Below the pieces are notes generated by a model, which searched no databases, had not been told where the DNA came from, and saw only the letters and a list, made by a program, of their open reading frames with translations. A stretch of 63,636 nt of DNA, filler included, from Collodictyon triciliatum (Eukaryota): the NCBI GenBank assembly GCA_043381765.1. It is 7 parts of 7 records of this genome, joined end to end, with 100 filler letters (N's around TTAATTAATTAA, not from the genome) between each part and the next. Parts side by side here need not be neighbours in the genome. Positions count along the whole stretch, not along the records: positions 21,141 to 31,605 come from JBHJMP010002665.1; 6 more parts are not named here. One strand, 5' to 3'. Position numbers and translations under genes: made by a program. Below are positions 13,701 to 58,966 of this stretch, piece by piece; position 1 is the first letter of the stretch; every line of letters starts with the position of its first letter.

Positions 13701-14072
13701 TCTCGTTTCTTTGAAAGGGTCAACATGGTTGCATTACGGGCGCACTTGTCTCACTTTTTTGCCACAACTTTCGGTGACCTTGAGCGTTCTATGAGGGTTA
13801 ACATACGACGGGTCCATTCGCACCTCCAAGTTACAGACGACCACTACGACATCTACGTAGAGTTGTTGATTGCTTCCATCCTGGAGATGAAGCCAGGACT
13901 TACGCCAAAGTCGCTCAGAAAAATCACAAAAATTCTAGAGTCCTTTAGAAATGAGGTAGTTACACGTGGTGGCGAGACATCGAAAAAATCCAGGCAAACG
14001 TGGTGGAGTTATCTCCCTATCACTCTTTCCAGATTCCTTTACGCAGAGAAATCTGACCAGCCGCCTGTGTAA
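10722..14072 (+). CDS. Intronless multidomain membrane protein: disordered Ser/Pro N-terminus, about 8 TM helices, RNI-like LRRs, C-terminal group I truncated haemoglobin
   Basis: Single 3.35-kb ORF; start is ATG 10722 or CCACCATG 10755. Hydrophobic helices at about 11766-12630 with a C...DHSLICWSNGH loop. LRRs (IDLSRNSL, LCLSYNQL, LILDFNPSI, LSVNFCNLG, LSVQGNELG, LQLEWNNM) at about 12868-13390. Globin at 13614-13964: ILSEIGG...VFCLRILNDPILSRFF...RAHLSHFF...FG...RRVHSHL..TDDHYD. Confidence 0.85.
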   Translation: MAHNLLAIQPTMRKHRHSSRSSDRSIPLPTIQESNVSTSVLPISLPKLEHIDKPASFLRLILCEAFPFHAAFLSHPHADPNTHAARDLPNPAHRMPPIPSGFQPHPQSNPPRNAAAWVNPGGKPMPPRPFLASLKTKPSNSSIGSSGSNGFIDQTAGSSSPTLSSGASGSPKSPSPKILTRNMACGSLPIMSQPMISPSSSPNIVTKSPPSAPKPSLSFSTPTQPPLSSSASGGSNSPNQSKAIPPRLLKRDDSEQKNASTSQSPVLERPRPLFSANQNFSKAMISLQMVDPNQTSNGSSLSSSGKPGRRGSRRFSFQGYVLPQTARRWRNLLPSEQRRRKLAIPDNIELSIILQGLAMVLNFMFLYWSPFGAGVSRLLGAPALDNPDSFNSFPPYFLGHFYIPVLSVFIFLNTIGSLVSLFHIQFLVMLLGPKLYKLCDEVWYFVVSSLVMPITSVLLSSMLCRDDPRNGQRIHEIDHSLICWSNGHISLVIFSLLSVSTLIYYSLFKRVEFFSILERAKTSNGNFFYESNPWGFMTRFLIQAVFCANSLFVVPVERQIAKLIYFLCAFGNFILINTNMSYENPRCHGISGSLAACVIIPQAISFTHGVHIGVLAGITILVSFISYIFCVARAVYTKYSFLHRLIDENPTVIRKDYDSRIGRELLSSFKDGQYNTKDHVILLSSKLHSCNYIFIEHWCCVIGRPQSFFHTEWISKVVAIDLSRNSLTSSHIYHLSRAMLTQDSRVQKLCLSYNQLCVLSSFPLSCLIYYHTHLKELILDFNPSITLAGFRYIVNSIISSPNKSLAHLSVNFCNLGSDCAIPISKLLCSQTHHLSRLSVQGNELGVKGAEIISDAITLNGGRDISLQLEWNNMKKQGVEMLLNSIQIENSEHRHKSKPIEGPQLGVLRNGLSKEDFANIPKSGPDDVVEFESDVNEVKPFLDEPVTHPTQTQETPGRTEQAEPDSILSEIGGHEVMEGVIQVFCLRILNDPILSRFFERVNMVALRAHLSHFFATTFGDLERSMRVNIRRVHSHLQVTDDHYDIYVELLIASILEMKPGLTPKSLRKITKILESFRNEVVTRGGETSKKSRQTWWSYLPITLSRFLYAEKSDQPPV

Positions 14073-14844
14073 GAAAACCCTGCCCTTCCAATACTTATTT
14101 TTATGTCTTCCTCCAGTTTTTTTTATTCTTGGAAAAAAAAAGGGTCGAATAGAACTTTGCTCTAATGTAACTCATTCATCGCGGTATGCTGCCTTCTGAA
14201 TCCTTATTCTTTTCCACTATCCCTTCCATTGGCTAAAAAAAAAAAGTCTGGTGACCACCATCCCACACTTCACATGGATACAACCCTTGACGCGCTGTTT
14301 TATTTTATTCTGTTTTTTTTTTGTTTTTGCTCCCAACAGACAATTTCATATATGGTTAAACGAATACATATGTAATGTGTCCGAATGCTTATTTGGGTAA
14401 TAGTTAAGAAATAGCTTATTAAGTGCTCGTGACATTTTAACCCGCGAAACTTTTCTGATGTGGAAATCAATGTGGTCTGTCAATATACACAAATTTAAAC
14501 AGTTAATCGCGATCTCGGGCGCACACAGCCGGGTGAAGGTGTGAAGTGGTGTTGTGAGGTTGAGGCTTGGAGGCGGGGTGAGGTGTGACGCCAGGACAGG
14601 TTGCTGTGTATTTGTGCGCGACGGGGCAACAAATGGTCCCCCAGACGGTCGTGCAACACAGAGAAACCGCCAGAAAATTAGCGATTGAGATGTGGGAATG
14701 GTAAAGCTAATTTCAGCCCGAAGAAACACCAGAGGCAAGCTGATAAGTTTCGAGGTGGTATCGATACCACAGATCGACTCCCACAAAAACAAGCAAAATT
14801 TGACCCCATTTCACCGCGTCACCCAAATTATACAACAAGTCAAA

Positions 14845-16341
14845 ATGTCCGTCCGTGGATTCAATGGAAACATCTTCAACCTTCTCGGAGATGACAATGA
14901 CGAGGCCGAAGTAGCCCCTGTGGTCGTTGTTGCCAAGAAAGACGCTCCCAAGAAGGAAGCTCCCAAGAAGGAGGCCGCAAAGAAGGAGGCCGCAAAGAAG
15001 GAGGCTGCTGCACCCGCCAAGGAAGCACCCGCCAAGGAAGCACCCGCGAAGAAGGCTGACGCTCCCGCAAAGAAAGCCGACGCCCCAGCAAAGAAGGCTG
15101 ATGCCCCTGCTAAGGCCGAGGGCAAGCAACAGGACAAGCCCAAGTCCGCCCGCAGTATCCTTTGAATAACGATGCCTTCATCGTCACACACTCTAGTAGC
15201 CACTTCGCACTATTCCTGCCTCTGGGCACGCTGTAATTTTGCTCTTATACTTTCACCTTAACACCGGCTCCCCTCCCACCTGTTCCAAACTTCACGCCAC
15301 CCAATCACAGGCGAAGGAGGTTAGAAACTACACAGCCCAACCCCTCCACAAACCTGTCCGAAGCAACCTCCCATTCAGCCAATTTATACGCTCTAAGCAT
15401 GTCCTGTGCTTGGCTTGAACTGACTTTCACTCGCTCTCCCTGCCCAATAGACAAGCCGCAACGCGACAACCGCGACAAGCCGCGCCTCGTCCGCACTGAG
15501 GACGGTGAACTTCCCGCTTCCCGCGTCTACGATCGCCGCGGAGCCTCCCAACGCCAGTAAATACAACTTTATCAACACGCAGCTACACTCATACTAATTG
15601 CTTGAGAGTTACGTTTTAACTGAACCTGCTGCCCTACCCACGCAGCGCCCCGAACCACGAGAAGCGCGAGGGAGCCGGGCAGCACAACTGGGGCCTGAAG
15701 GGCGAGATCGAGGCTGGGTACGTCCTCCCTGAACCTCCAACCTTACTCACAACCGATCCCCCTGGCCAAACGCTCATCTTCCCACGATCTGCAGAGCTGA
15801 GATTGCCGCCAATGAGCGTGGCGACCGCCGCCGCCCTCGCCGCAACGAAAGGACGACGTCCACCACTGTGGGAGACACGAGCGTGTCTGTGACCATCAAG
15901 ACCACAGACGACGCCCCTGCCCCTGCCGAGGAGAAGAAGGAGGCTGAGCAGGCGACGGAGCAGACCCAGCCGCCCGCGACGGAGGAGGGCAATGCCAAGG
16001 AGCCAGCGGCAGAGCAGGACGAGGAGAAGGAGACCGGCATTTCGTACGCCGACTACGTCAAGCTGCAGGAGCAGAAGGCCCAGGAGCTCGCTGCCCTTCT
16101 CGGCAAGCCGATCCCCGCCGCCGCTGCCTCTGCTGCCGTGCCCGCCTCATCGGCCGCCCCGGCCCCCCGCACCAAGCGCGGCACGCAGAACGTCGCCGAT
16201 GTCTTCCAGGTCCGCTACACCTCGTCCGGCCGCAGCGGCGCAGCCTACAGCCACGCCAAGCAGGGCACCCCCAACGTCACCGACACCAGAGCCTTCCCAT
16301 CCCTCGGCGCCGCCGCTGCTGCCGCACCCACCCGCCGATAA
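14845..16341 (+). CDS. SERBP1: SERBP1/HABP4/Stm1-family ribosome- and mRNA-binding protein (spliced)
   Basis: N-terminal NIFNLLGDD, Lys/Ala/Pro/Glu repeats, RVYDRRG, EKREGAGQHNWG, ISYADY and C-terminal PNVTDTRAFPSLG. Introns start at 15155, about 15557 and about 15717. GC-rich coding sequence. Confidence 0.85.
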
Positions 16342-16675
16342 GCCTGAGACGAGCCGCAGAGGCGTCCGCATCCACATCCGCATGCGCATCCGTCCCTCTC
16401 AGACTCGGCACGCCGGAGCGGCCTCTCTACCCTCTCTCCCACCCGCACAAACCAACCCCGTGCATTAATCTTTTGTTCTGTGTCTTTAGTACTCGCGACG
16501 GAAAATACACTTCGGATTCAACCTCTTCAGCCCGAAGATACAATAATGAAAAAGGGGTCAACACGCATCACAGACCGCTCCGAACACTAACTTTCCCTTT
16601 TCCATAGAATTGTTGTTGGGTTTGGTGGGGACTTCACTTTATAATCTTGCGTAGCGGCGCACCACACAGAGTCCC

Positions 16676-17440
16676 TCAGACGCCCATCCACGACTCCATC
16701 GCACTGGCAAACCGCGGCGCATTGCCTCTGGGCAGGGGCTGAACACTCTCCCACCGCGCCGACCGAAGCGTGTCCACCAGTCTGCTGCACGTTGTCTGGT
16801 ACAGAAACCCGTCCGCTTCCATCTGCTGGGCGAGCTGCGGGGCAATGCAAAGGGTCACGACATCACTATCATTGCAAATCCCCCAAAAGACACGCATTGG
16901 GGTTGCGACTAAAGACAGAAAGGAAAGAGTGGACAGGACAGAAAGGCAAGGAAGAACAGGGTTGCCTCTGCTTGATGGTTGTCCATGAGCCGATCATTCA
17001 CCACCACGACGAGGCGCTTCTTCAAGGCCAGAGCCTCCAACACAGTCCCGGCTCCTGCGTGGCTGATCACATAGTCTGCTGCTTGCAACTCCGCTCCGAG
17101 CGATGGCGTGAAGCGCAGGCTCCTGCATTCCACCGGCAAGGCGCCCTGGCCACTGCCGGCTTGAAGGTTATGCCACTGCGGCTCAACCAGGCCACGCCCG
17201 TATTGCACCACCACCCGGTGAATCCCGGCCTCTTGGACATACGACGCAAAGCGGCTGCTGTTGACCTGGGGATTGGGGGCAGTTGTTTTTCTTTTTCCCT
17301 TCTTTCTGAGTCTCGAGTCGGAGGGCTTTGATCATGGTAGGATGCTACAGTTCTTTTTACGTGCGTGTGTAAAGCGGGTAGGTCACCTCTTGGATGAGCG
17401 CGTCGAACGAAGTGGAGCCCACAGTGACGAGAAGCGCCAT
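16676..17440 (-). CDS. ALG13: UDP-GlcNAc transferase catalytic subunit ALG13 (3 exons)
   Basis: MALLVTVGSTSFDALI..., VVQYGRG, ADYVISHAGAGTVLEAL...LVVVVNDRLMDNHQAE|LAQQM. Introns 17266-17386 (GT-AG) and 16835-16965 (apparent GC-AG). Confidence 0.92.
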
Positions 17441-17619
17441 GCTTCCTTGCGTCGCGCTGCCTTTTTTTTTTTATTTTTTTATTATTATTATTATTATTAT
17501 TCTTGAGATTTTCCTGGCTTCAAGGTGCGTGTGGTTCTTAAATGCCTACAATGTCATTTTTGTCTTCGCCCATTCAAATTCCTTTTTTTTCTTTCTGTTT
17601 CAAGAGAAGACTCATTATT

Positions 17620-18530
17620 TCATCTTTTCTTCATGGCGCTTGGCGCTGGCCGAGATGGAAGCAAGATAGTCGAGGCAACCACAGATGGCGCACTGACAGA
17701 AGCGACGCGGAATCGTGACGGATGCAGGCACACGAGCGGGGCGGATAAATGGCGGTAGAGCACTGCTCGGTGAAGATTATGTTTGAAAGGCGTATCACAC
17801 TCAATCGAGTTGTTCGGAACAATGCTTTTCGCAGGTTCTAAGACGTTTTTTGAGTCGGTTTGGTGACTTGTTGCGTGCGTGCTGAGCAGTTTTGATTGGT
17901 GTGAGTCACGAGTCTCGCCAAGGAAGTTATCAATCTCAAAGTCGTCTGGGCCGTTATCCGCGCTATCAAACGCTGCCTGTCAAACATAAATATTACGATG
18001 ATTATCTTGTTTGTGCTAGGATATAAAACAAACCTTTAAACTGGGCGAGGGAAACCGCTCTGCTTCCTCGTGTTGTCTATTCTCTGAGGGACCGCACCTA
18101 ACAAGATTAAAACGACGAATGAAGTCCGACCGGGACATTTCTTCACCTCCACCAAGGTCGTAAATAATCGAGAACGACTCGTTTGTTGTGATTTCCATTT
18201 CATCAGATAGAAATGTCCCTTGCATATCTGGTATCGTTGAGCCTGAAAGATGATAGGTCATGTTAAAGGCAACTAAACGATATTCTCTAAAAAAAAAATT
18301 AGCTTCTATATGCTCTTCTAGCGCATCTTCTTACAGTATTCATCCACGTCGCACTCATCGCAGCTGTCCATTATTTGAACGATTATGTCTGATACTGTGG
18401 ATTGGCATTCGCTGATGTCATTTGTGGATAAGTGAGAGTCACTTTTGAAAAGATTCTTCTCGCTCATCGCATGTCCACTACTAGATAAATGGGCTTTGTC
18501 CAATCGAATGATTGTTAGAGAAGGAAGCAT
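17620..18530 (-). CDS. Hypothetical acidic protein, at least 3 exons
   Basis: Three open segments joined by phase-compatible GT-AG sites (DEY|CSTIPD..., SPSLK|AAFDS...). No recognised domain. Confidence 0.4.
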
Positions 18531-21040: not shown

Positions 21041-21140
21041 NNNNNNNNNNNNNNNNNNNNNNNNNNNNNNNNNNNNNNNNNNNNTTAATTAATTAANNNN
21101 NNNNNNNNNNNNNNNNNNNNNNNNNNNNNNNNNNNNNNNN
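21041..21140. other. Artificial contig spacer
   Basis: 44 N + TTAATTAATTAA + 44 N. Confidence 0.97.
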
Positions 21141-24100
21141 CAAAAAATCAAAAAATCAAAAAAAAACAATAAAAACAATAAAAACAATAAAAACAATAAA
21201 AACAATAAAAACAATAAAAACAATAAAAACAATAAAAACAATAAAAACAATAAAAACAATAAAAACAAAACAAAACAAAACAAAACAAAGAAACAAAGCT
21301 CTTTCGCGCGCCGTTACTAAATCTAATAGCCGAGCATTCTTGTTCTTCTCAGTTATGCCCATGCGAGTCTGAAATCGAGGGTAAAAATAGATAGCTGGTA
21401 TAAATGTCGGGTCCTGCTTTGACTTCCAATATTGATCTTGCACACCTTTTTCCTATATACGATTCAAGGGAAGGATAATTTTTTTATTTTAGATTTTTTA
21501 CAGCCTGACGTAGTTGTATGCGCGTTGGTTGAAAGCATCGACGCGTGTCGGACAAGGGGGCAGGCCCGCAGGATACGGAAGCTGGATTCGGGCTCACCAC
21601 TATCATTCGAAAAGGTTGAGAATTATTATAACTCTAAAGAGCTGCAACTACAGGAGCCCTGACCTGGATTCGATCCGAGGCCAAATTTCCCTCAGGAGGC
21701 GAATAACCATACAGCCATCCCGCCCTCCTCTGGCCTAGTACCCCTTATATACATGTGTTTTCGAAGGTAAAGGTGCTGTCTTTTTTGTTTTTTTTTTTGT
21801 TTTGTTGTTGTTGTTGTTGTTGTTGTTGCTGCTGCTGGCATGGTCTTGCCTTGTTTTCCTATGCCCTTCTCCTCCTACGTGCTCTTTTCTTTACTATTCC
21901 TTTCTTGTCTTTTTGTCCTATTTTCTCTTTGAAGTCGATATAACCAAAACCTTTGGTATAGATTCAGCTCCATGTATATCTCATCATTTAGAGTTTTCTC
22001 TTCAGAAATTTATGTTGGGAGTGTTTACCCCTAGCATGGCCTTTTTTCCACCGAAAGGCCGCAAATGACAACTTTGGAGATTTCAAGTTCCATTACCTTT
22101 TGTTCGTCCTAGGTCTCCCGCAAACAATACCAGTGACTCCTCGAAGGCAAAACTTCAAAAAAAGTAATAAAGCGTGGCAAAAAGAAACCCACGGCAAGAG
22201 AAAGATACCACAATTTTACGAGTTAAAATTAGACGTTAGAAAATCTCATATTGAGTATGAATTTTACTCTATGACAGATTCACCTGTGTGTATGTGTGTA
22301 TGTGTATGTGTGTTGTGTGTGTGTTGTGTGTGNNNNNNNNNNNNNNNNNNNNNNNNNNNNNNNNNNNNNNNNNNNNNNNNNNNNNNNNNNNNNNNNNNNN
22401 NNNNNNNNNNNNNNNNNNNNNNNNNNNNNNNNNNNNNNNNNNNNNNNNNNNNNNNNNNNNNNNNNNNNNNNNNNNNNNNNNNNNNNNNNNNNNNNNNNNN
22501 NNNNNNNNNNNNNNNNNNNNNNNNNNNNNNNNNNNNNNNNNNNNNNNNNNNNNNNNNNNNNNNNNNNNNNNNNNNNNNNNNNNNNNNNNNNNNNNNNNNN
22601 NNNNNNNNNNNNNNNNNNNNNNNNNNNNNNNNNNNNNNNNNNNNNNNNNNNNNNNNNNNNNNNNNNNNNNNNNNNNNNNNNNNNNNNNNNNNNNNNNNNN
22701 NNNNNNNNNNNNNNNNNNNNNNNNNNNNNNNNNNNNNNNNNNNNNNNNNNNNNNNNNNNNNNNNNNNNNNNNNNNNNNNNNNNNNNNNNNNNNNNNNNNN
22801 NNNNNAAAAAATTTTCTCTCGCTTATAGGGGCCATGTGAGCATGCATCATACGGATACAATACATTTCTTTGTTCAATCGAACTGCATCGTCGACATTAT
22901 GCCACACCAATCCAAGACAACTGAAAATGTGCATAAAGAGTGTTTGGACGCTTTAAAACACTGGGTAATGTTTATTCAAATATAGTGATGATGGTTAAAA
23001 CTGATTTCTCTATATAGTGACCATATTTCCAATACTCTAATGATTTGGATGGATTTTGAATCGCTTGATTTTCTTCTCCAGCAAATAGCAAGGATCATAT
23101 ATCGATACGCTGTAAAATACACCATAGTTCAAGTGATTCAATATGAGGATTACCTAAGTTGATAAAAAATAGTATGATATATTTCCTTTTTCGATTATTT
23201 TCTATTAGCATGTCGATATAATCGGTATCACTATCCTATTATATTATTACATTCTTTTCACTTGATGACCTACATCAGTTTTAAAAATAATTCAAAGACA
23301 ATATCAGCTAACTCTGACTCTACTTGTAGCAAACTTTTTTCACAAATAAACCCAGGACAAGTATGGCTATTATAATTTACTTCATTTCATTTTATTTGCA
23401 AATATAGTGTGTCGTATTCATAATTTTACCGAATTATATCAATATCGAGGGTAAACCAAACTAACACATTTCAAGTTTTAGAGAAAAGATCTTCAATCAA
23501 AATATATATTTAACTATGAGTCCTCAACACAATATACTTTAAAATAACCTAATATGATGGGGCATTTTAATCTATCTATTGCGCGTGTCCTGTATTCACA
23601 TGTCTTATAAGCCTTCAATTTTTTTTGACAACCAAATAATTTATTCAAATATAAATTTTTTCAATAGTTTCTAATATGGTGAGGTGGTTTTTTTTTGAAA
23701 TTAATATAATCATTAAATGGAAAAAATCGAGATATCAAAATGTAAATCAACTAACCAAACCATCATGACATCAATGATTCAAAAGAAACCACAGGAACAA
23801 ATAGACTTTTCCAGAGATAAAGTGGCTACAATGATTGATTAACCATATATAAATGGAGTCTGTCCCTATTAACTTTCTCTATTTTCATTCGTATTTTTTT
23901 GCATAAAAATTCAAGCTTTTTTATATCAGGGATTGTGTCGTATAAACGCAGAGAAAATGAAATAAATATATGTTGTAGGATGATTGTGTAATGAATAATT
24001 AAAAAAAATGAAAGCCGTACATAAAGAGTGCACGATAAATCAAAAGGGCGGATGGATATAGCAAATTTATCTGATAAATTCGAATACACGATTTAATAAA

Positions 24101-24146
24101 ACACTTTCGATAAATTTATTGTAGGTTTTTACGGTTAACTACTAGC

Positions 24147-27100
24147 ATGACTTCTATATTGGAGGTCGGACAAATAATTCCTCGTAATATCGGGATGCAA
24201 GTCGTGTTTTTTTTACTCGCTATTGGTATGATATGCCCTGCCACACCTATGGAGGAAGCCTGTCGGTATAAGACACCTTTACTTGTGGACAGCGTTTTGA
24301 TGTTTGAAACAACCCTAACCCTGAGGAGCCGTGTACTGTCGGGAACAGAGGGGTATATGACCGTTGGTTCAGTTTATGGAACTAACGAGAATTCTTCATT
24401 AGTGACACGCATTCATTTGCTAACTAATGAAAACAACTGTTGGCAGCGCTCGGAGGAGCTCCACGGTCCCAAAATTGATAAAGATGATGTGCTTTTCACA
24501 TCTATTGCATCTAATGGCAATTTAATCGTAGTTGGTGGTGCAAGTCAGAAGCAGGATATCAGTTTTGTTTACCCCTATGTGCGAACCAACTCCACTTGGA
24601 CTGCCTTAGCCTTGATCACAAGGCCTTATAATAGCTGCTTTGGGAAAAAAATCAGCATAGATAGCAATTTTATCGTTATCGGTGCTCCAGGAATTGATGG
24701 GGCATTCGGACAAGTTGAAGTCTACAAGTGGGAAGATAAAGGAATGGCAATGGTTTCAGTTATTTGCCAAGCGCTTCCAGACGGTCTTGGATCGTCTATT
24801 ACCCAGAATACAAATTACCTTGTGATTGGGGCACCTAAATTCCGGGATGGAAGAGGAAATATTCTCATTCTTACGAAAGAAAAGGGTGATACTTTAGGAG
24901 TGCCTGAGAACATTGTTCCGAGATCTCAATGGACAGGTGGATTTGGATACTCTGTGGCTATTGCGGCACAATCGACGATGGCAATTAGTTGCTATTCCTG
25001 CGGCTATATGAGTATCTTTGTTAAAATAATACAGATATGGACAGAAGAATCTAGAATTGCAATCGAAGATGGGACTATAGGTGCACTAGTCATTTCGATC
25101 AATGGTGCATTAGTAACAAGAAGTCATCTCCAACAAAAGCTGAAAGTTTATGCGTGGTCCAAAGGAGAACTTTTTCTTCATCGCTCATATACATGCGTGG
25201 CCGATATTTGCTGCCTGGAGGAATTAGGAGCTGAATTATACTTATCAGATGACTCTATTTCACACAGCCTTCAAAGGAGATGCCTGAGAGACAAAAAAGG
25301 GGGTTTCAATCCAGGTAAATCATATAAACATGTACAATTGGGTTTGGACTTAAAGTCCGTGTAGCAAGAGCATATTTATAATTAATGCTTAAACAAATAA
25401 TATGCAAACCTGTCCATCCGTAATGGACAAATTCGAATATTCTTATATTAGTAACACTATTTAACACTATAAAAAGGACAACCGGACAAACACACTATGG
25501 TAAACCAAGAGCTGCGCAACCTCTATTTCCCCTCATCCAATACACTGGAAAATAATTATACTGGTAACATATGTTTCTATACGATTATAATTGAATTCGA
25601 ATGTTACAACCTTCTATAGTAATTATTTATTTAACAGTATGCTGTCTATTTTGTGTATTACAGATCACCATAGAGAAGAAGGTTATAATACGATTTTGGA
25701 ATCTATTCAGAGTAAACCAATAGATATAGACACCAAAGCAGTTGGAGCCACACATGTTTCAAATTGCTTTAAAGTTGAGGGTGAAGCCGCGCCGGAGAAA
25801 TGTGAGGACCACTCTCGTATGCATAAAATCTCTAAAGCAGTTGGCAGAAATCGTTTAACGCAGTCAAAGTTTTCAGGCGCCACAAAATTAGATGTCGTGA
25901 AATTCCAGCTTCCCCTGCGGCCTACTCAAACTGAATCGAAGATGATTAAATCCATCGAAAATACCTCAATCTCAACATCTTATTCAGAGTCTGAGTCAAA
26001 ATATGATATCTCACCGTCCCTTTCAAATTCTCATTCATATTCCGAAAGCAGATTTGACATCCCATTAATTGCTTCAACTTCCCAAAAATCGACAATCATA
26101 GAATCTGATTCAAGGATTGAGGCATCTACGCCTTTTTCTGATTCCTTTTCTGAGAGTAAGGTAATCTCGTCATCAACGTCTCGTGCATCATACCATTCTC
26201 CAACGACTAGCGCAGATGAATCAGAAAATAGAATTTCTGCCTCACCTAGCCACCCACATACCGAAAGCAAAGTAATAACACCATCATCGTCAAGCTTTGC
26301 TATCTCTCAATACACCACAAAAACAGAATCGGAATCAGAGACCGAAAGCGAGTCCCAATCAAAATCAGATTCTGTCACACCTAGTCAAACCACTTCCGGG
26401 AGTGTATCAAAGACAGCCTCACTAAGTCCAACACGTTCCCCAAAGCTGAGTACTACAAGGACTGCCTCATTCAGTCATCCGTATACGGAAAGTAAATTAC
26501 GAACATCATCAATAAGCCCACCCATTCCTCAATACACCACAAAAACAGAATCGGAATCAGAGACCGAAACCAAGTCCCAATCAGAGTCAGATTCTGTCAC
26601 ACCTAGTCAAACCACTTCCGGGAGTGTATCAAAGACAACCTCAGCAAGCCCAACACGTTCCCCAAAGCTGAGTAATACAAGGACTGCCTCATTCAGTCAT
26701 CCGTATACGGAAAGTAAATTACGAACATCATCAATAAGCCCACCCATTTCTCAATCCACCACAAAAACAGAATCGAAATCAGAGACCGAGTCCGAGTCCG
26801 AATCAAAATCGGGTTCTGTCACACCTAGTCAAACCACTTCCGGGAATGTATCAAAGGTGCCTCTGCAAAGCTTAACATATTCAAAATCATTAATAGAAAA
26901 AAAGTCAGAGTCTTCGTATGAACCTCTAACTAGACCATTTTCAGAGAGTAAAATGTTTCCATCGCGCACCAATCACTTGTCTGTAAGTTATACGAATACT
27001 GACTTGAAATCTTCACGTGCAGATTCTAACTCTAGATCAAAATCGGAGTCTAATAGTCATATGCACTTTAAGTCCACAGTAGCGCATGACTCAACAACTA

Positions 27101-30100
27101 TGGAAAAAACATTTACAGGGTCACCGTCAACATCTCATTTTTTCTCAGATTCAGATACATATCAGTCTGAAACACTATATATTAGGTCCAATTCGCCCAG
27201 TATTTCTCTTATGCATTCGTTCAAGAGTCAGTCTAACACTAAAACGGAGTCAGATTTTATCTCAAGATCCGAAAATTCCAATACAAAATCCCAATCGCAA
27301 TCCCAATTCAAGTCTCAATCTCAGTCTCAGTCTCAGTCTCAGTCTCAGTCTCAGTCTCAGTCTCAGTCTCAGTCTCAGTCTCAGTCTCAGTCTCAGTCTC
27401 AGTCTCAGTCTCAGTCTCAGTCTTGCCTTTTAAGTGGACATATAAATAAATGCGGATTTTGTGGGCCCGAAGAAGCAGAAGCGACATTAACATATAAATT
27501 CTCTCCAATTACAGGTGGTTTTTTGAATGGTAAATCACTGAAAAAAACACATTGGGCATACAAGACAAATATAACAGGGATATCTAAAGCATATCCAAGT
27601 GCTTCGTTGAGTGTGTCACTTGGGGAAGTGTCTACCACAGTTGACTCTCTCATTGCGGGAAAGGTGATACCTACTAAGCCTGATGGGTTGCTGATTTCCA
27701 AAGATGTATACATTTCCAGCCCTACACTTACCATTCGAGCATGGCTCGTCGGCACAAGAGGTGAAACTATGAACCAAGGGGGAGGGATATACGCGCATAT
27801 CATCGAGTATCCCGACTTACAGTCAAGTTGCATTTATGATGGAATGTCTCCGTGTTTAGTGAGTATTGATATCCCTCCTTCATATTTTTCTCAGTTCAAT
27901 AACTCTGCCACGGTCAAGCTTTTATTTGGCTCGGAACATACAACACTGGACGAGGCTACTCTTGTCGGATTGCCAATGTACAGCGATAACCCAAGGACTG
28001 GAATGAAGCTTCAGTTGCCCCAGCAGCCAGTTCTTTCATCATCATATTTTTCATCGACTCTGACAGCTTTTACTGACGGTCAAATATTGGAAGGGTTTAA
28101 TATAGTAATATCCATACCCTCTGATATTGCGACAGTTGAGAGTATTACAAGTTCGGGGTCATTTACGGGAGCAACAAATATACGATCATCAGATGCAACT
28201 CTAGTTTGGACCAGACAAAGTGGCGTTAGTGATATGATGGTCACAGGAGCAATTAATATTGCAGCAATAAAATGGAAGGTAAAAGATGTCCCTGGTGATG
28301 CAACTGGACAAGTAAAATTCCTAATCAAGCAAATGACCGATGTACAAAACGTACCCATAGTGGAAGACTCATCACAGGGAGATGTCTTCGACATGAAAGG
28401 TTCATCCAAAGTGGGGTTTATTTTTGTTTCTCGAGACGAAGTGCGTGGGCATTTTATTAGGACATTACATAATGATATCGTCAATACTGCTGTACTGAAT
28501 GGAGGCATAATCAGTGGTAGCGTGATTTTGTACGAATATTACCAATACCAAAGTCAGCAGGACATAAGTGAGACATCTGAGTGCACCAGCGATAATCCTG
28601 AGATTGTTAAAACACTCGGATGTCGAATATTACTTAACGGAACAGAAATGACTGGGGCAGAATCTGTTATTCTGCGTTACAAGGATGCAAAGACAAGTAT
28701 TCGTGTTTGGTATCCTATGAATGAGATAAAATTGAGAGTAGATGACTCTACACTGAATCGGATATCGAAATACAAAACAAAAAGTTGTTCGAAAGAAGAA
28801 TTTCAAAAAACCCGCCTTTTTGCAAGTGTAGAGTTTTGGAGTGGAGATGATTTATTTGAAGGGGATATATCAGAGCTGATTACTTTTGTGAGTTCTGATA
28901 CAAACGTTGCTATTGTTGATGGAAACCTTGTAAGCGCACTAAAAGTGGGGCATGTGTTTGTTTATGCATTTGGCTATGCATCAAATGTAGTGGCAATAAG
29001 AGTGACTGACGAGCAAGTTTTCTTGAAAAAAATACAGCCTATTGTCTACACAGACCTGAAAGTTTCGTTTGGGAGCTTTGGACCCGAGCTTCTGACTAGC
29101 ACTATTAGATATGTAGACACTGAAATAATTCAAGCACTAGATTTTGAGGGGAAAATAGCACACATATCTGTTTATGGAGTCCTCTCTGACGGAAATCGTC
29201 TGGAAATTAGTGAAAAAGACGGCTTAATCTTTTCTAGTACAGACCCTAATATTATTGAAATATTCAATTATCCTCCCAGGGTTGTTGCCAAGAGTAGTGG
29301 CTGTGGTTATTACGTTAATGCGACGCTGTCTCTTTGTGGTAATACTATCTTGGAGGGATATGGTTTGGTAAAGCTGGATTTACCGAGAATCACACAGATT
29401 GACGTGTCTGTAGATAGCAGCAAAATTACATCAAAAAGTGACCTTTCGTCAACCATAGGGATACCAACCGAGGGAAATTTGAAAGTAAGATGCTTGTTCG
29501 AAAACGGAGTTTGGAAGGATTTTACTCTGGACCCACGAACAAGATATAGTACTGAAAATAAACACTCTAACAGAACCGTAGAAATAAAAGATAATATGGA
29601 AGGAGATTCAAAAATAGGTGTCTACGTTGTTGCCACAGGAACGACATTCGGGAAAGAAACCATACTTGTGACAATAGCAGATATTGCGGATATGAAAGGA
29701 AGAGTAAGCATTCAAGTAATAGGGTTTTCCGAACTAAAATTATTCTCACACCCTTATCCTTCATACTCTGGATCTAAAGATGTAATTTTAAAGAAACTTC
29801 ATCGGTACGAATGTACACAAGTGTACCAACAGTCAAGTCTGGCGATGTATATGATTTTATCAGATGGATCATATTTTGATATCACAGGACTCTCGTTTTC
29901 AGCGTTCTCTATTCAGGGCAAAAACACTGATATCGCTGAGGTCGTAGGCAAGAATGTCATAAGGCCTATAGGAAATGATTTTGGAGAAATACTTGTGGTA
30001 GGTTCCTACTCCAGCGCCAGTACAAACCTCACAATTGAGGTCACCAATCGAGGTCTTAATGCTAGCAAAATAATCACAAGTTTTCCTGGAACATTTTCTG

Positions 30101-31605
30101 GGATTGCGGAGCTTTCAACTCAGCAACTGACATCATCAGGAATATTTCTGGATGGAACCAAGCACCCATCAACACATACCATCTCTGGACTACTAGTTTA
30201 TTCCAGTGATGATGATCGATCCATAATTTTGGATTCTTCTGGCAAAGCAAGAATTAAAAAAAACTCACAGGGGATTGTAAGAGTCCAGGCATCAACATGT
30301 TACGGAGCCATGGGCTTCTCTGACACATTCGCAAATTTGACTCCTGATGTTGGAGATATTGATTTAGGCAACACAAAAGGTCAAGTTTTTGACGATATGG
30401 TAGTCGGATCATCCAAAATTGTACCTATCCGAGTTAATTGTGGGACAAATAGATTTGGTAGCCTCGACCTAATTCTTCAATATAACGAAAGTACCATAAA
30501 AGTTAGTTCCTATAGCAGTGGTAGCCAATGGCCCGGAGGGCAGTTAGAAATCACCATAAATGATCCTCCGGGATTAATCCGCATTTTGGGAGCTGCAAGT
30601 GCGTCATCGAGCTCATCAGGGATATTGGAAATTGCAAAGATTGTGATTGAGATGACACAGGAAGAAGGGTCCCAGCTAGACGGAGAAATTATAAAGCTTT
30701 TATCAAATGACGCAACCACAACTCCAATCGGAGGCTACCTTGGACCTGGTGACCGACGAAAAATAATTGCTGGAAGCGCATGGTTGAAAGGGGTCGGAGG
30801 TGGTAGAACAATAAGGGGGCCGAGGAATAATTCGGTGCAAGCAGTCAAAACTACAAAGACACAATCTGCTTTGTCAAGACAAACTGTGAATTGTGAACCA
30901 TCAAAAATTATGGGCAACACAGATGGAGATTGTGAATTCTCGGTTGCAGATGTACAATTTGCTCTTCGCTATCTTGCAGGATTAGTCAGCGAACCTCTTG
31001 ATTCGTTTCAATTGCGCATGCTGGATGCTGATGGAAACGGAGCCGTGCAAGTGCAGGACGCTATCTATCTCATTCGTGTTTTGGCGAACAAATGGAGATT
31101 TTTTCATTTTAGCCTTATATCTCCTACTACATATAATTCCTTCGCACGAATACAAATTGATTCCATGAATGCTGATATGAATTATTCATTTGTGAAAACT
31201 TCCTATCGATTACTATTGCTTACTTCGAAGAACATGGACATCAAGATAACCAGGGGAATAGATTTGGTGAAAAGTCATGGTATAGTTTCACTGGAATGTG
31301 AGAACATGAACAATGGGAGTTTTTTGATGGAGGGCCGTGTTTTTCATAGAGAAAAAATTGGGGTTTCGATAAAATTAACCACATATAATACTTTGGGGGC
31401 AACATCAAATGACCGTGAAGTGACATTCTACCAAGGTGTTGGAGGAAACTTAATACCCTTTCAGCTTATTGACGCTGACTATGAAACGGAAGAAAATAAA
31501 ACTCAAACTCAGTCTCAGTCTCAGTCTCAGTCTCAGTCTCAGTCTCAGTCTCAGTCTCAGTCTCAGTCTCAGTCTCAGTCTCAGTCTCAGTCTCAGTCTC
31601 AGTCT
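24147..31605 (+). CDS. Giant secreted/surface protein: signal peptide, FG-GAP propeller, Ser/Thr stalk, TMEM132-like cohesin+Ig array, second cohesin, dockerin; 3' end truncated by contig end
   Basis: ORF 24147-25314 (signal-like MQVVFFLLAIGMICPA from 24195; FGKKISIDSNFIVIGAPG, LVIGAPKF, FGYSVAI) joins ORF 25664-31605 through a phase-1 GT-AG intron at 25315-25663. TMEM132 motifs include DIVNTAVLNG, DISETSECTSDNPEIVK, LNGTE..G, VWYP..IKLRVDDSTLNRI and GVLSDG...SSTDPNII...PRVVAKSSGCG. Cohesin-like at about 30400-30790, dockerin-like at 30913-31086. Confidence 0.82.
26305..26856 (+). repeat. Coding tandem repeat, 222-bp (74-aa) unit, about 2.5 copies
   Basis: CAAT(A/C)CACCACAAAAACAGAATC recurs at 26308, 26530 and 26752. 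Confidence 0.92.
27313..27423 (+). repeat. (TCTCAG)n coding poly-(Ser-Gln)
   Basis: Hexamer repeat in frame with the large ORF. Confidence 0.95.
31506..31605 (+). repeat. (TCTCAG)n coding poly-(Ser-Gln) at contig end
   Basis: Hexamer repeat at the assembly break. Confidence 0.95.
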
Positions 31606-31705
31606 NNNNNNNNNNNNNNNNNNNNNNNNNNNNNNNNNNNNNNNNNNNNTTAATTAATTAANNNNNNNNNNNNNNNNNNNNNNNNNNNNNNNNNNNNNNN
31701 NNNNN
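31606..31705. other. Artificial contig spacer
   Basis: 44 N + TTAATTAATTAA + 44 N. Confidence 0.97.
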
Positions 31706-31810: not shown

Positions 31811-34800
31811 ATAACATGCATTCCCAATTGGCTCTGCGATATGACACTCATAAGCACTCTCGACCTATCAAAGAACGAAGTAACTTCTTGCATATAATTA
31901 CCATTAACATGTATCGTCAACCATTTTACAATTCAGACCATGTACTATAAATAATTTAACAACTATTTAAGATATCTTCACTGCCCGAAAAGATCACTAA
32001 AATGAAAAGGCTCAAGACACTTTTCATAAGTTCGTTGGAGGTTTTTTTTTTTTTTAAAAAAAAAAGAAGATATATTCATGAATGGAAGCAATCAAAAATA
32101 AATATATCACGCAATAATTGACTCATAATATCCTTTTTAAAATGAAAAAATAGATTGATAAATTTCCAAAACAACTCACGTCGATGACTTGGATGGCTCG
32201 TCTTGACATATCAAACAATAATGTAAAATTTTTACAAGACAATACAAAACACAAACATTTCCATTTCATTATTTGTATTCTTAATCGTGATGTGGTACTT
32301 AGGTAGGAAACTTATATATTTTTTTTGTCTAGATTGATTTTATACCAGAGGCAATAGCTTCGATGGTAGAACTGAAGTCACTCCGTTTAAGCCACATCGG
32401 GGTTGTTAATCATGATGCATCAATAAAACGATAATTTTTGAAAAAAATTCCTCCTCTCTGCATTATTCTAAATATTTTTTTCAAATAATAATAATAATAA
32501 TAATGCAGCTCTCGAGCATACCCACACAAATCTATTCGATGACTTATCTTGAGGAATTAGATCTATCCAAAAATCAAGTTGGTAAACAGAGTCCGTGCTA
32601 TAACAAGTCCACTTTGAATCATCTGCTCGCTTCATATCTTAAAATTTCTCATAAATAAATTTTGTAGATATCTACGATAGCTAGCATGTCATACATGACA
32701 AATTTACAAAGACTGGATATGAAGCATAACAGCTTTCCTTACCACACACAAGAATTTCTGAATGCAGCAGATATGACTGCCCAGAAAATAGAATTTTCTC
32801 GTAGGAGCCTTAGGGACGTTCCATATGAGCTTGTTTTACTTCCTGCTAAATCATGGAGAGTGAGCCTAGCTGGGAACATGGTATTTAGAATGGGAAGAAC
32901 AAGAAGAAGAAACCTTTACAAAATTACACTCTTGCATCACGACTATCATATGAGCAATTTGCTTATTCATATATCAATTCTTCATAGCTATCAATTGTGC
33001 CTGATTGGATATATGAGGCCTCATCTATACAAGAAATCGATATATCGAACAATCAGGTTTGTTTCTACCTTTCTTTTCTTTTCTTTTCTTTTCTTTTCTT
33101 TTCTTTTCTTTTCTTTTCTTTTCTTTTCTTTTCTTTTCTTTTCTTTTCTTTTCTTTTCTTTTCTTTTCTTTCTTTCTTTCTTTCCTTCTTTCCTTCCTTC
33201 TTTCTTTCCTTCCTTCCTTCCTTCATTTTTATGACTTTTTGATTGATTTGTTTACATTTCTTTATTCCTTTCGGCCCTTCCAAAATGTATGAAGCAAGAC
33301 TCTTGAATTCAAAATTTTATATGCAACATATGAATAGATTTCCTCTCTACCAGAGGGGTTATCAAATTTGAGGAACCTTAACACATTGACTGCCAGCTCA
33401 CTAATGGTCTGAACACTCGGCAAATCAAATTTGATGAGTCAGTCGCAAGTTTTCATTCTGCTAATCTACTCTTTACTATCAGCTAACAAGCATCCCTGAC
33501 TGGTTGTGTAGAATGACATGCATAGAGTCTCTGGACCTTTCGAAAAATCTAGTATTTATAATCTATCGCATAATTAATTATATATATTTTAAACCCAAAT
33601 GTAAAAGTGTTCGCTTTCCCACTAATTAGATTATTTTCCCCCCTATAAAAGATTTCAGAGATACCTGACATTGTAGCCAATCTAGTCAATCTTAAAACCC
33701 TAGATATTTCTAATAACGAGGTAATTAAAGCCATTCCGTATATATGAATAAGAAGAAAAAAAAGAATGAATGGATCCTCAAATGTCTTTATGCGATAAAG
33801 ATAATAACCCCCCCCCCCCCCCGTGATTTAGCTGGAAAAGATGCCGCCTGTCATAGCAAGTATAAAGGGACTTAGAAATGGGTTGAGTTGTTCGGGTAAC
33901 CCATTAAAAAACATTCCACATAATGTCGTCAAACAAGGACCAATGGCTGTATTTGATTTTTTGGTCGCATTAATTGGAGGAAGTATAAAATGGATGCAAG
34001 GAAGACTTTTGTTGCTCGGTGAGGGAATGGTTGGAAAAACCACTCTAACAAAGTCTATGGCACATAATTTTGAGAGAGAATCATTCAAAAACACAACCGA
34101 CGGCTATAGAGAAAGAACAGACGGGATTGTCCACGTCGATATTGATGACATTATTGTTGGAGATTCAATAGATCCTATATCAATAAAAATCTGGGATTTT
34201 GGAGGGCAAGAGGAGTTCCAAATAACACACCCCTTCTTTTTGTCATCAGGCGCATTGGTTATGATTCTGTATCGCCTCGATTTAGGAAAGGACAAAAACA
34301 ATATTGGGCGTTGGATATCCATGCTTGATAACTTCGCACCAGATTCCAAAATAATCATAGCAGGAACTCACTTAGACGTTGAGGAGAAGATTAGTTCAGA
34401 TGAAATGAACAAGGAAATTAAAAAAATCGTGGAACAAAACAAGAATCACAAGTTTATTCACTCCAATATTAAGCTCAGCAACAAAAATGGAATTGGTGTT
34501 GCAGACCTGAAGCATATCATTTACCAAGGAATGATGGAATTAGAGAACGTAAATAACCAAGTTCCAAATTCTTACGTGCGTCTAAAAGAATACCTAGAGT
34601 ATATTGGGAAGACGACCAAATATGAAAGCATTCAGCTTATATATTCTTTTGCAGAAAAAACTCTTCAGATGAGCACGCACCAATGCGAAAGCGCTCTCAA
34701 ATTCTTGAATGATTTGGGCTCTATTGTTTGGTATTCATCGTTTGATGGAATTAAAGAAGTCGTATTTCTGGATCCACTCTTCCTCATCAATATATTCCGG

Positions 34801-58866: not shown

Positions 58867-58966
58867 NNNNNNNNNNNNNNNNNNNNNNNNNNNNNNNNNN
58901 NNNNNNNNNNTTAATTAATTAANNNNNNNNNNNNNNNNNNNNNNNNNNNNNNNNNNNNNNNNNNNN
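58867..58966. other. Artificial contig spacer
   Basis: 44 N + TTAATTAATTAA + 44 N. Confidence 0.97.

Follow-up and report, generated by a model that had tools for sequence, protein, structure and literature searches.

Cohesin–dockerin pairs are among the strongest non-covalent protein bonds known and have been studied almost only in bacterial cellulosomes. The type I dockerin is built from two duplicated 12-residue calcium loops, having Asp or Asn at positions 1, 3 and 5 and Asp at position 12, with a helix after each loop, and chains carrying both a cohesin and a dockerin are common in prokaryotes. In animals, a cohesin homologue occurs in the TMEM132 proteins, the module of which, in the accessible part of the account by Sanchez-Pulido and Ponting (2018, PMC6030884), consists of a conserved region, a cohesin and three immunoglobulin (Ig) domains, and is also found in choanoflagellate and sponge cadherins. 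According to that part of the account there is no detectable dockerin in vertebrates, and the ligand of the TMEM132 cohesin was left open for this reason. The premetazoan and sponge cadherins having a TMEM132-type module are the coherins, lefftyrins and hedglings (Nichols et al. 2012, as cited in the same part of PMC6030884). Here we analyzed a stretch of 63,636 bases from the eukaryote Collodictyon triciliatum (assembly GCA_043381765.1), hereafter called the window, which carries a gene encoding a single chain in which a TMEM132-type module is combined with another cohesin and with a type-I-like dockerin.

The best explanation of the region is that it covers the greater part of a single real eukaryotic gene, which encodes a giant secreted or surface-attached protein of adhesion type and contains one copy of a conserved unit of about 1050 residues. 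Chance can be excluded because of the length of the open frame and because of the 624 homologous cluster representatives described below. The unit has the order N-terminal beta domain, divergent cohesin (cohesin 1), about six Ig-like domains of which the first three are of TMEM132 type, canonical cohesin (cohesin 2), basic linker, type-I-like dockerin and a further beta domain. A sequence-only reading of the window had named five modules here, and all of them were found, no more than about 40 bases away from the positions it had given, with a 2020-codon open frame (25591..31653, + strand) encoding them all in the same reading frame. Its central claim, that a single eukaryotic chain combines two cohesins and a type-I-like dockerin with Ig domains of TMEM132 type, agreed well with the results of Pfam, hhalign, Foldseek and family-profile searches as given in the following.

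The dockerin is located at 30907..31095 (+), with calcium loop 1 at 30916-30951, calcium loop 2 at 31024-31059, a helix after each loop and a short middle helix between them. In the numbering of the 1390-residue translation of window positions 27430-31600 (P0001, where residue n starts at base 27430+3(n-1)), loop 1 reads N-T-D-G-D...D (residues 1163-1174) and loop 2 reads D-A-D-G-N...D (residues 1199-1210), which is the duplicated calcium-loop and helix pattern of a type I dockerin. A phmmer search with this query against PDB sequences gave three chains at E<=1, all being dockerins (0.083, 0.32 and 0.63) and all matched at residues 1160-1217. Taken alone, the window protein is suggestive of a dockerin, not decisive. 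For a family-level analysis, the stretch from cohesin 2 to the dockerin (window 30322-31134) was aligned with 26 relatives, giving 27 sequences (alignment A1). The profile of A1 matched 61 chains among PDB sequences at E<=1, with dockerins at 2.7e-8 to 1e-3, including 4fl4_A (2.7e-8), 2ccl_B (3e-7), 1ohz_B (4.9e-7) and 6kg9_A (2.7e-6), and all 21 chains at E<=0.001 were either cellulosomal dockerins or cohesins or else enzymes with a dockerin, which was the part matched, compared with only 0.59 for the generic calcium-binding protein 1jfj_A. Among the individual A1 segments, Dockerin_1 was found at E<=0.01 in 9 of 27 (best 3e-7), and EF-hand_7 and EF-hand_1 in one of 27 each.

Cohesin and dockerin profiles cut from A1 were also run separately against 151 cluster representatives of the family, yielding 268 cohesin-profile domains in 149 proteins and 201 dockerin-profile domains in 136 proteins. 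The calcium loops of these 201 dockerins were found to be strongly conserved, loop 1 having Asp or Asn at position 1 in all 201, Asn or Asp at position 3 in 193, Asp or Asn at position 5 in 198 and Asp at position 12 in all 201, with loop 2 having Asp at position 1 in 192 and at position 12 in 188. A generic EF-hand pair is ruled out by this conservation together with the A1 profile matches to solved dockerins and the Pfam results on the A1 members, so that the dockerin assignment of the sequence-only reading was upheld. To judge from its loops, the module would be expected to bind calcium. Unlike the bacterial type I dockerins, however, those of this family carry a Cys inside calcium loop 1 in 162 of 201 cases (A1 columns ~230-262; window 30889-30933), at a position that is Gly in the bacterial dockerins of the A1-profile alignments, and they also have Cys-rich residues just upstream, with one to three Cys arranged as C..PC..C in most members and a single Cys in the window protein. 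These conserved Cys residues are likely to form a eukaryotic disulfide staple.

Cohesin 2, the canonical of the two cohesins, is located at 30358..30786 (+). Pfam Cohesin (PF00963) matched it at residues 992-1074 with 25.4 bits, or 27.5 bits when the module was isolated, the cut-off being 24.1, and matched 22 of the 27 aligned A1 segments. The A1 profile, moreover, matched the cohesin 4ums_A among PDB sequences at E 1.1e-6. In a Foldseek search of the PDB using an AlphaFold2 model of the cassette formed by cohesin 2, linker and dockerin, ranks 1-28 were all solved cohesins (best E 1.4e-7), with a target template modelling score (TM-score) of 0.57-0.76 for most of them; the archaeal non-cellulosomal cohesin 2xdh was found at rank 12 and the first non-cohesin at rank 29. 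The nearest clusters in the ESM Atlas, as compared by features, were bacterial proteins of about 200-280 residues named 'Cohesin/Dockerin type I domain-containing', and in one such cluster Dockerin_1 was present in 87% and Cohesin in 55% of the 143 members. This likeness to prokaryotic proteins having both modules is one of features and not of alignment, and those proteins, in contrast to the window protein, have no TMEM132-type Ig arrays.

Cohesin 1 is more divergent and occupies the position of the TMEM132 cohesin, at 27997..28371 (+), as placed by hhalign of two alignments and by model strands 11-125. The query alone gave no Pfam match for this module. When an alignment of 12 cohesin 1 sequences (A2) was compared using hhalign with the cohesin part of A1, the two matched with a probability of 98.8% and E 9.4e-17 over 113 columns. 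Pfam Cohesin was found at E<=0.1 in 6 of the 12 A2 members. In a scan of whole relatives it matched the first module of P0047 at 3.3e-9, and a jackhmmer search started from cohesin 1 recovered 429 domains in 154 proteins, 219 of these being on cohesin-2 positions and 210 elsewhere. An hmmsearch of PDB sequences with the A2 profile gave nothing significant, only weak cohesin matches of which the best had E 0.34. As judged from these sequence comparisons, cohesin 1 appears to be a genuine but divergent cohesin homologue.

The remainder of the unit is made of beta domains. Between the two cohesins, the AlphaFold2 model reads as about six beta-sandwich segments. Three Ig-like domains corresponding to the TMEM132 4th, 5th and 6th types lie at 28381..29412 (+; all-beta segments 139-238, 241-368 and 383-482 of the model), and approximately three further Ig-like beta-sandwich domains follow at 29470..30333 (+; segments 502-597, 610-705 and 718-789), with a predicted local distance difference test (pLDDT) value of mostly 80-93. 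Pfam matched Ig_TMEM132_4th with 38.5-40.5 bits (cut-off 27) at residues 347-429 of P0001 (nucleotides 28468-28716), and this family recurred in the relatives, whereas the 5th and 6th domains matched in homologues only, mostly under cut-off, as did the 3rd. In the query itself no match at E<=1 was found for TMEM132D_N, the 2nd, the cohesin-like 3rd, the 5th or the 6th domain, or TMEM132D_C, and neither TMEM132D_N nor TMEM132D_C matched any of the 27 A1 segments or 15 whole relatives. There was also no Pfam match within 29401-30402. The N-terminal beta domain preceding cohesin 1 (27430..27984, +) belongs to no Pfam family and was conserved in the closest relative P0003 (residues 155-337, phmmer domain E 4.5e-31), and the beta-sandwich domain after the dockerin (31099..31428, +; model strands 1045-1154), likewise without a Pfam family, had local phmmer matches in 10 relatives, the best again being P0003 (domain E 7.1e-16). 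The AlphaFold2 model of the whole unit (1166 residues, alignment A3 of 25 sequences) had a mean pLDDT of 84.8 and a predicted TM-score (pTM) of 0.55 and was all-beta save for the three dockerin helices, with a disordered linker at model residues 946-973. A Foldseek search with this model found generic Ig-like arrays only, such as those of nuclear pore, ciliary central-apparatus and S-layer proteins, at a query TM-score of at most 0.15.

As in animal TMEM132, going by the accessible part of PMC6030884, the unit has a conserved N-terminal region first, then a cohesin homologue and then Ig domains in tandem (BIG_2-like). Unlike animal TMEM132, it goes on from there with three additional Ig-like domains, another cohesin and the dockerin.

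An exhaustive phmmer search using 1061 residues of the unit as query (window 27967-31149) identified 624 cluster representatives at E<=1e-3, of which 405 had E<=1e-10 and 162 had E<=1e-30; word-index homologue searches had given 1 and 9 proteins. The window protein is hence not a singular one but belongs to a family of at least 624 cluster representatives, and a one-off recent fusion is ruled out by that number. Many of the matches spanned the query from residue ~2-17 to ~1045-1057, i.e. through the dockerin. The best match, P0003, had 40% identity and a length of 2743 residues, and P0002, with 23% identity over 1020 aligned columns, was colinear through cohesin 2 and the dockerin-like stretch. 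The C-terminal 300 residues of P0002 are Thr/Ser-rich with repeated six-Cys motifs that by eye have the look of a ShK-type toxin fold. Many relatives are giant proteins of 4000-8000 residues with 2-5 matched stretches. The species was known for three of the 30 clusters that were looked up, these being P0003 from a Diphylleia rotans transcript, P0006 from Prymnesium parvum, the UniRef name of which is 'Transmembrane protein family 132 fourth domain-containing protein', and P0055 from Mesostigma viride. As the named members come from three distant eukaryotic lineages, the unit appears to be an old eukaryotic cassette and not a recent bacterial graft. A bacterial contaminant contig was also rejected as an explanation, in view of the eukaryotic identity of the named relatives, the Ser/Thr-rich stretch and the predicted spliceosomal intron of the gene.

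Pfam analysis of whole relatives showed how the unit is embedded. In P0003, a REJ domain, a GPS and a transmembrane-like segment were found downstream of it; P0014 and P0028 had CTDC repeats of Dictyostelium type; and P0016 and P0024, which aligned over the full extent of the unit, cohesin 2 and dockerin included, contained 13-15 cadherin repeats together with TMEM132 Ig domains, P0016 also having a Dockerin_1 match at 21.8 bits. In joining cadherin repeats with TMEM132 Ig domains, the latter two resemble the coherins, lefftyrins and hedglings, from which the window protein differs in having no cadherin repeats in its available part. The unit thus occurs in very distant eukaryotes and as a part of surface receptors of several kinds, with the window gene being an incomplete and not the best-conserved member of a large family.

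We consider next the linker between cohesin 2 and the dockerin, and how closely the two modules are associated. In the window protein it is a basic, disordered linker of 40 residues (30787..30906, +), with RTIRGPR at 30805-30825, a lone Arg at 30877-30879 and one Cys before the dockerin. Across the family, 195 of the 201 dockerins were found within 220 residues downstream of a cohesin, with a median linker of 47 residues (range 12-119), and in proteins having several units, every unit had its own cohesin–dockerin pair. Cohesin-profile domains without a following dockerin numbered 73, including those at cohesin-1 positions and 11 near protein ends. The convertase-type motif R-x-[KR]-R occurred in 112 of the 195 linkers (one copy in 56, two in 55 and three in 1); among 3634 windows of matched length taken from other parts of these proteins, it was present in 41 (1.1%). 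In A1 the motif had two favoured places, one just after the cohesin, with a G-G-R-R-R-R-like sequence, and the other ahead of the Cys-rich residues that precede the dockerin.

The AlphaFold2 model of the 271-residue cassette, made using A1, had a mean pLDDT of 87.6 and a pTM of 0.83. It contained a beta-sandwich at residues 13-155, a linker with a pLDDT of about 50 over residues 161-190, and helices at 208-218, 228-234 and 244-254, starting at position 10 of the calcium loops. With the linker disordered and the cohesin accounting for only about 55% of the chain, so high a pTM suggests that the position of the dockerin is fixed relative to the cohesin, and the model would accordingly have cohesin 2 and the dockerin packed into one compact body. 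A complex prediction of cohesin 2 plus dockerin, run with no alignment or controls, scored 0.02 against a mark of 0.34, which speaks neither for nor against binding.

Based upon these features, we propose that cohesin 2 and the dockerin act as a 'cleave-and-hold' clasp in cis rather than as a cellulosome-like scaffold, a reading that we judge to stand at about an even chance of being right. The two adjoining modules would bind each other within one chain in a calcium-dependent manner, thereby closing a clasp across the linker; proprotein convertases would cut the R-x-K/R-R sites of the linker in the secretory pathway, in most family members; and the clasp would then hold both halves together non-covalently after the cut. 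The predicted signal peptide, the Ser/Thr-rich stalk and the relatives having REJ, GPS and transmembrane segments or cadherin repeats give a surface-protein context for such a joint. Its proposed logic, with an ectodomain being cut and its fragments held non-covalently, is known from GAIN/GPS domains (adhesion G protein-coupled receptors and polycystin-1), SEA domains and the furin-cut heterodimerisation domain of Notch. That parallel is one of functional analogy only, the folds being unrelated, and here the hold would be provided by the predicted cohesin–dockerin pair, with the cut being made by a separate protease. With respect to bacterial cellulosomal type I pairs, such as the Clostridium thermocellum Xyn10B dockerin with the CipA cohesin (1OHZ/2CCL), the modules are alike in their profile-level homology, in the duplicated 12-residue calcium loop and helix with Asp at position 12, and in the cohesin fold. 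The differences are that the present modules are eukaryotic and without enzyme cargo, that they adjoin 1:1 in one chain across a basic linker often having R-x-K/R-R, and that their predicted pairing is in cis and not between chains.

Several observations weigh against this proposal, some concerning the window protein itself and others the family. The dockerin of the query scored under the Pfam cut-off (Dockerin_1, PF00404, 14.3 bits versus 22.9, E 0.048) and matched EF-hand_6 about equally (15.4 bits, cut-off 25). The query linker has R-x-x-R only (RTIR and RGPR) and no R-x-K/R-R, with RTIRGPR at the first motif place of the family and a single Arg left at the second R-x-R-R site, and the motif was also absent from 83 of the 195 family linkers. 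Together these linker results imply that cleavage is not universal and may not occur in the window protein, so that the suggestion of the sequence-only reading that the basic linker could allow cleavage and non-covalent re-docking gained support at the level of the family, from motif enrichment and the cassette model, and not from the query linker. Contact in cis was read from the pTM of a single predicted model. The 3' end of the gene, which bears on anchoring, is missing, with the contig stopping at 31605 inside a (TCAGTC)n microsatellite. Finally, known bacterial cohesin–dockerin pairs act between chains, and as each unit has two cohesins per dockerin, cohesin 1 could be the real partner.

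The last two points lead to an alternative in which pairing occurs in trans, the dockerin of one molecule binding to cohesin 1 or cohesin 2 of another and thereby giving head-to-tail polymers, homophilic cell adhesion or a surface lattice. One chain has both partner types, two cohesins per dockerin would leave a socket free, the solved bacterial pairs act in this manner and relatives with cadherin repeats are of adhesion type. The strict 1:1 adjacency (195 of 201 dockerins, with a short linker) would, however, be unnecessary for binding in trans, AlphaFold2 sets the dockerin on the neighbouring cohesin in the predicted cassette (pTM 0.83), and the enriched convertase motif would have no obvious role in a polymer; we therefore regard pairing in trans as possible but doubtful. 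That the two modules would not bind each other at all seems unlikely to us. The cohesins would in that case be beta-sandwich spacers and the dockerin a calcium-binding stiffener or a binder of some other ligand, both being retained for structural reasons. A cohesin can persist without a dockerin partner, as in animal TMEM132, for which the accessible part of PMC6030884 gives no detectable dockerin. Loop positions 10-11 are V-A and V-Q in the query and variable in the family, and not the Ser-Thr that we take to be the recognition pair at these positions in C. thermocellum type I dockerins. Nevertheless, near-obligate adjacency across distant lineages and a compact model would be unexpected of independent modules, both of which retain profile-level similarity to the interacting bacterial modules.

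A cellulosome-like scaffold would be the classical bacterial use of such modules, chains with both being common among bacterial scaffoldins, and the nearest Atlas clusters include bacterial ones with both Pfam families. The cohesins would then recruit separately encoded dockerin proteins, for example enzymes, and the dockerin of the chain would anchor it to another cohesin-bearing protein. A Pfam scan of 15 whole relatives revealed no enzyme domain, however, and the six frames of the 63.6-kilobase window contained no further cohesin or dockerin, and we regard this explanation as very improbable. Both head-to-tail polymerisation and a scaffoldin role had been put forward in the sequence-only reading, and neither received support here; the 1:1 placement of the dockerin beside cohesin 2 points instead to pairing in cis.

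For the structure of the gene itself, it should be considered that the window consists of seven contigs separated by six joiners of N44-TTAATTAATTAA-N44 (10473-10572, 21041-21140, 31606-31705, 42185-42284, 52743-52842 and 58867-58966). The joiners put a stop in all six frames, and genes across a joiner are not genomic neighbours. The cohesin–dockerin gene lies on the contig at 21141-31605, and its 2020-codon open frame enters the joiner at 31606. The conserved part at 27430-31428 is a portion of one long open exon that is truncated at its 3' side by the contig end, and the G+C content over the gene is ~0.38-0.42. Upstream lies a predicted exon 1 (24147..25314, +), the product of which would start with a hydrophobic stretch resembling a signal peptide (there are Met codons at 24147 and 24195) and continue into an FG-GAP-type repeat region; in the open frame 24114..25364, Pfam gave FG-GAP_2 at 32.6 bits versus a cut-off of 23. 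Local phmmer gave 0 matches for this FG-GAP part in the relatives. Exon 1 would be separated from the long exon by a predicted intron of 349 bases in phase 1 (25315..25663, +), its splice signals as read from the DNA being GTAAAT, a pyrimidine tract and TTACAG. The donor CAG / GTAAAT (exon end 25314) and the TTACAG acceptor (exon start 25664) would join exon 1 in frame to the long exon, and we infer that exon 1 belongs to the same gene, an agreement of frame being expected by chance in one case of three. Reads over 24100-27300 were represented only by a contig of 252 bases with 24 differences and another of 151 bases, both on Ser/Thr-rich or microsatellite parts, and nothing in this interval covered the predicted intron or its junction.

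The long exon begins with a Ser/Thr-rich low-complexity (mucin-like) region with internal repeats as seen in translation (25664..27429, +), which matched no Pfam family and ends in an (SQ)n microsatellite (27319-27423, +). The contig terminus is the (TCAGTC)n microsatellite (31510..31605, +), translated as (SQ)n. A microsatellite of this type, read as (SQ)n, is hence found on both sides of the conserved unit, and it was seen again at the gap edge of another contig (~56900-57016); such repeats probably caused the assembly breaks.

Other genes were also seen in the window. The contig following that of the cohesin–dockerin gene has a ROCO-type gene at 33832-37483 (+), with Roc (69.5 bits), COR-A (37.3) and then a protein kinase (108.9), preceded from ~32100 by short leucine-rich repeat (LRR)-like exons with small introns. 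A 1183-codon frame at 10573-14072 (+) has a Pro/Ser-rich start, a hydrophobic middle of multi-pass appearance and LRR_6 (26.7 bits), and ends in a bacterial-like (truncated) globin at 23.4 bits versus a cut-off of 21, which is an unusual fusion. At 14000-18000 there is a G+C-rich island (0.52-0.56) in a contig otherwise at 0.31-0.44, with overlapping Pro/Arg/Ala-rich frames on both strands. An Rfam scan of the whole window gave no match.

With regards to earlier descriptions, PMC6030884 was the only article among the matches listed that joined TMEM132, cohesin and dockerin, and in the searchable literature it was also the only one in which a dockerin was tied to coherin, lefftyrin or hedgling. 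A search of that literature for dockerin with choanoflagellate gave nothing relevant beyond it, and among the matches listed for dockerin with cadherin there were no eukaryotic dockerins, as judged by title and the start of the abstract. A TMEM132-type unit ending in a cohesin–dockerin cassette is thus apparently an undescribed eukaryotic variant, with which Peer et al. (2009) and Nichols et al. (2012) may overlap. We found no description of a cleave-and-hold joint of this kind in eukaryotic adhesion receptors in the searchable literature.

A bolder view, which we hold only tentatively and consider possible rather than probable, would be that the family carries an ancient eukaryotic 'snap joint', protease-licensed, calcium-dependent and mechanically strong, in giant adhesion receptors from protists to the cadherins of animal relatives. 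The halves of a cleaved ectodomain would then be held together and released only by high force or by loss of calcium, with the joint functioning as a mechanical fuse or sensor, and vertebrate TMEM132 would have arisen by reduction, with the first cohesin retained and the dockerin lost. The value of the window gene is as one example of the family. This gene and its relatives show that non-vertebrate proteins with a TMEM132 module have a dockerin in the same chain, where it adjoins a second cohesin and is mostly separated from it by a linker with a convertase-type site, and its presence there makes the question of what the TMEM132 cohesin binds directly testable. If the snap-joint view were true, cohesin–dockerin binding, which is known from bacteria, would be in general use as a mechanism at the eukaryotic cell surface.

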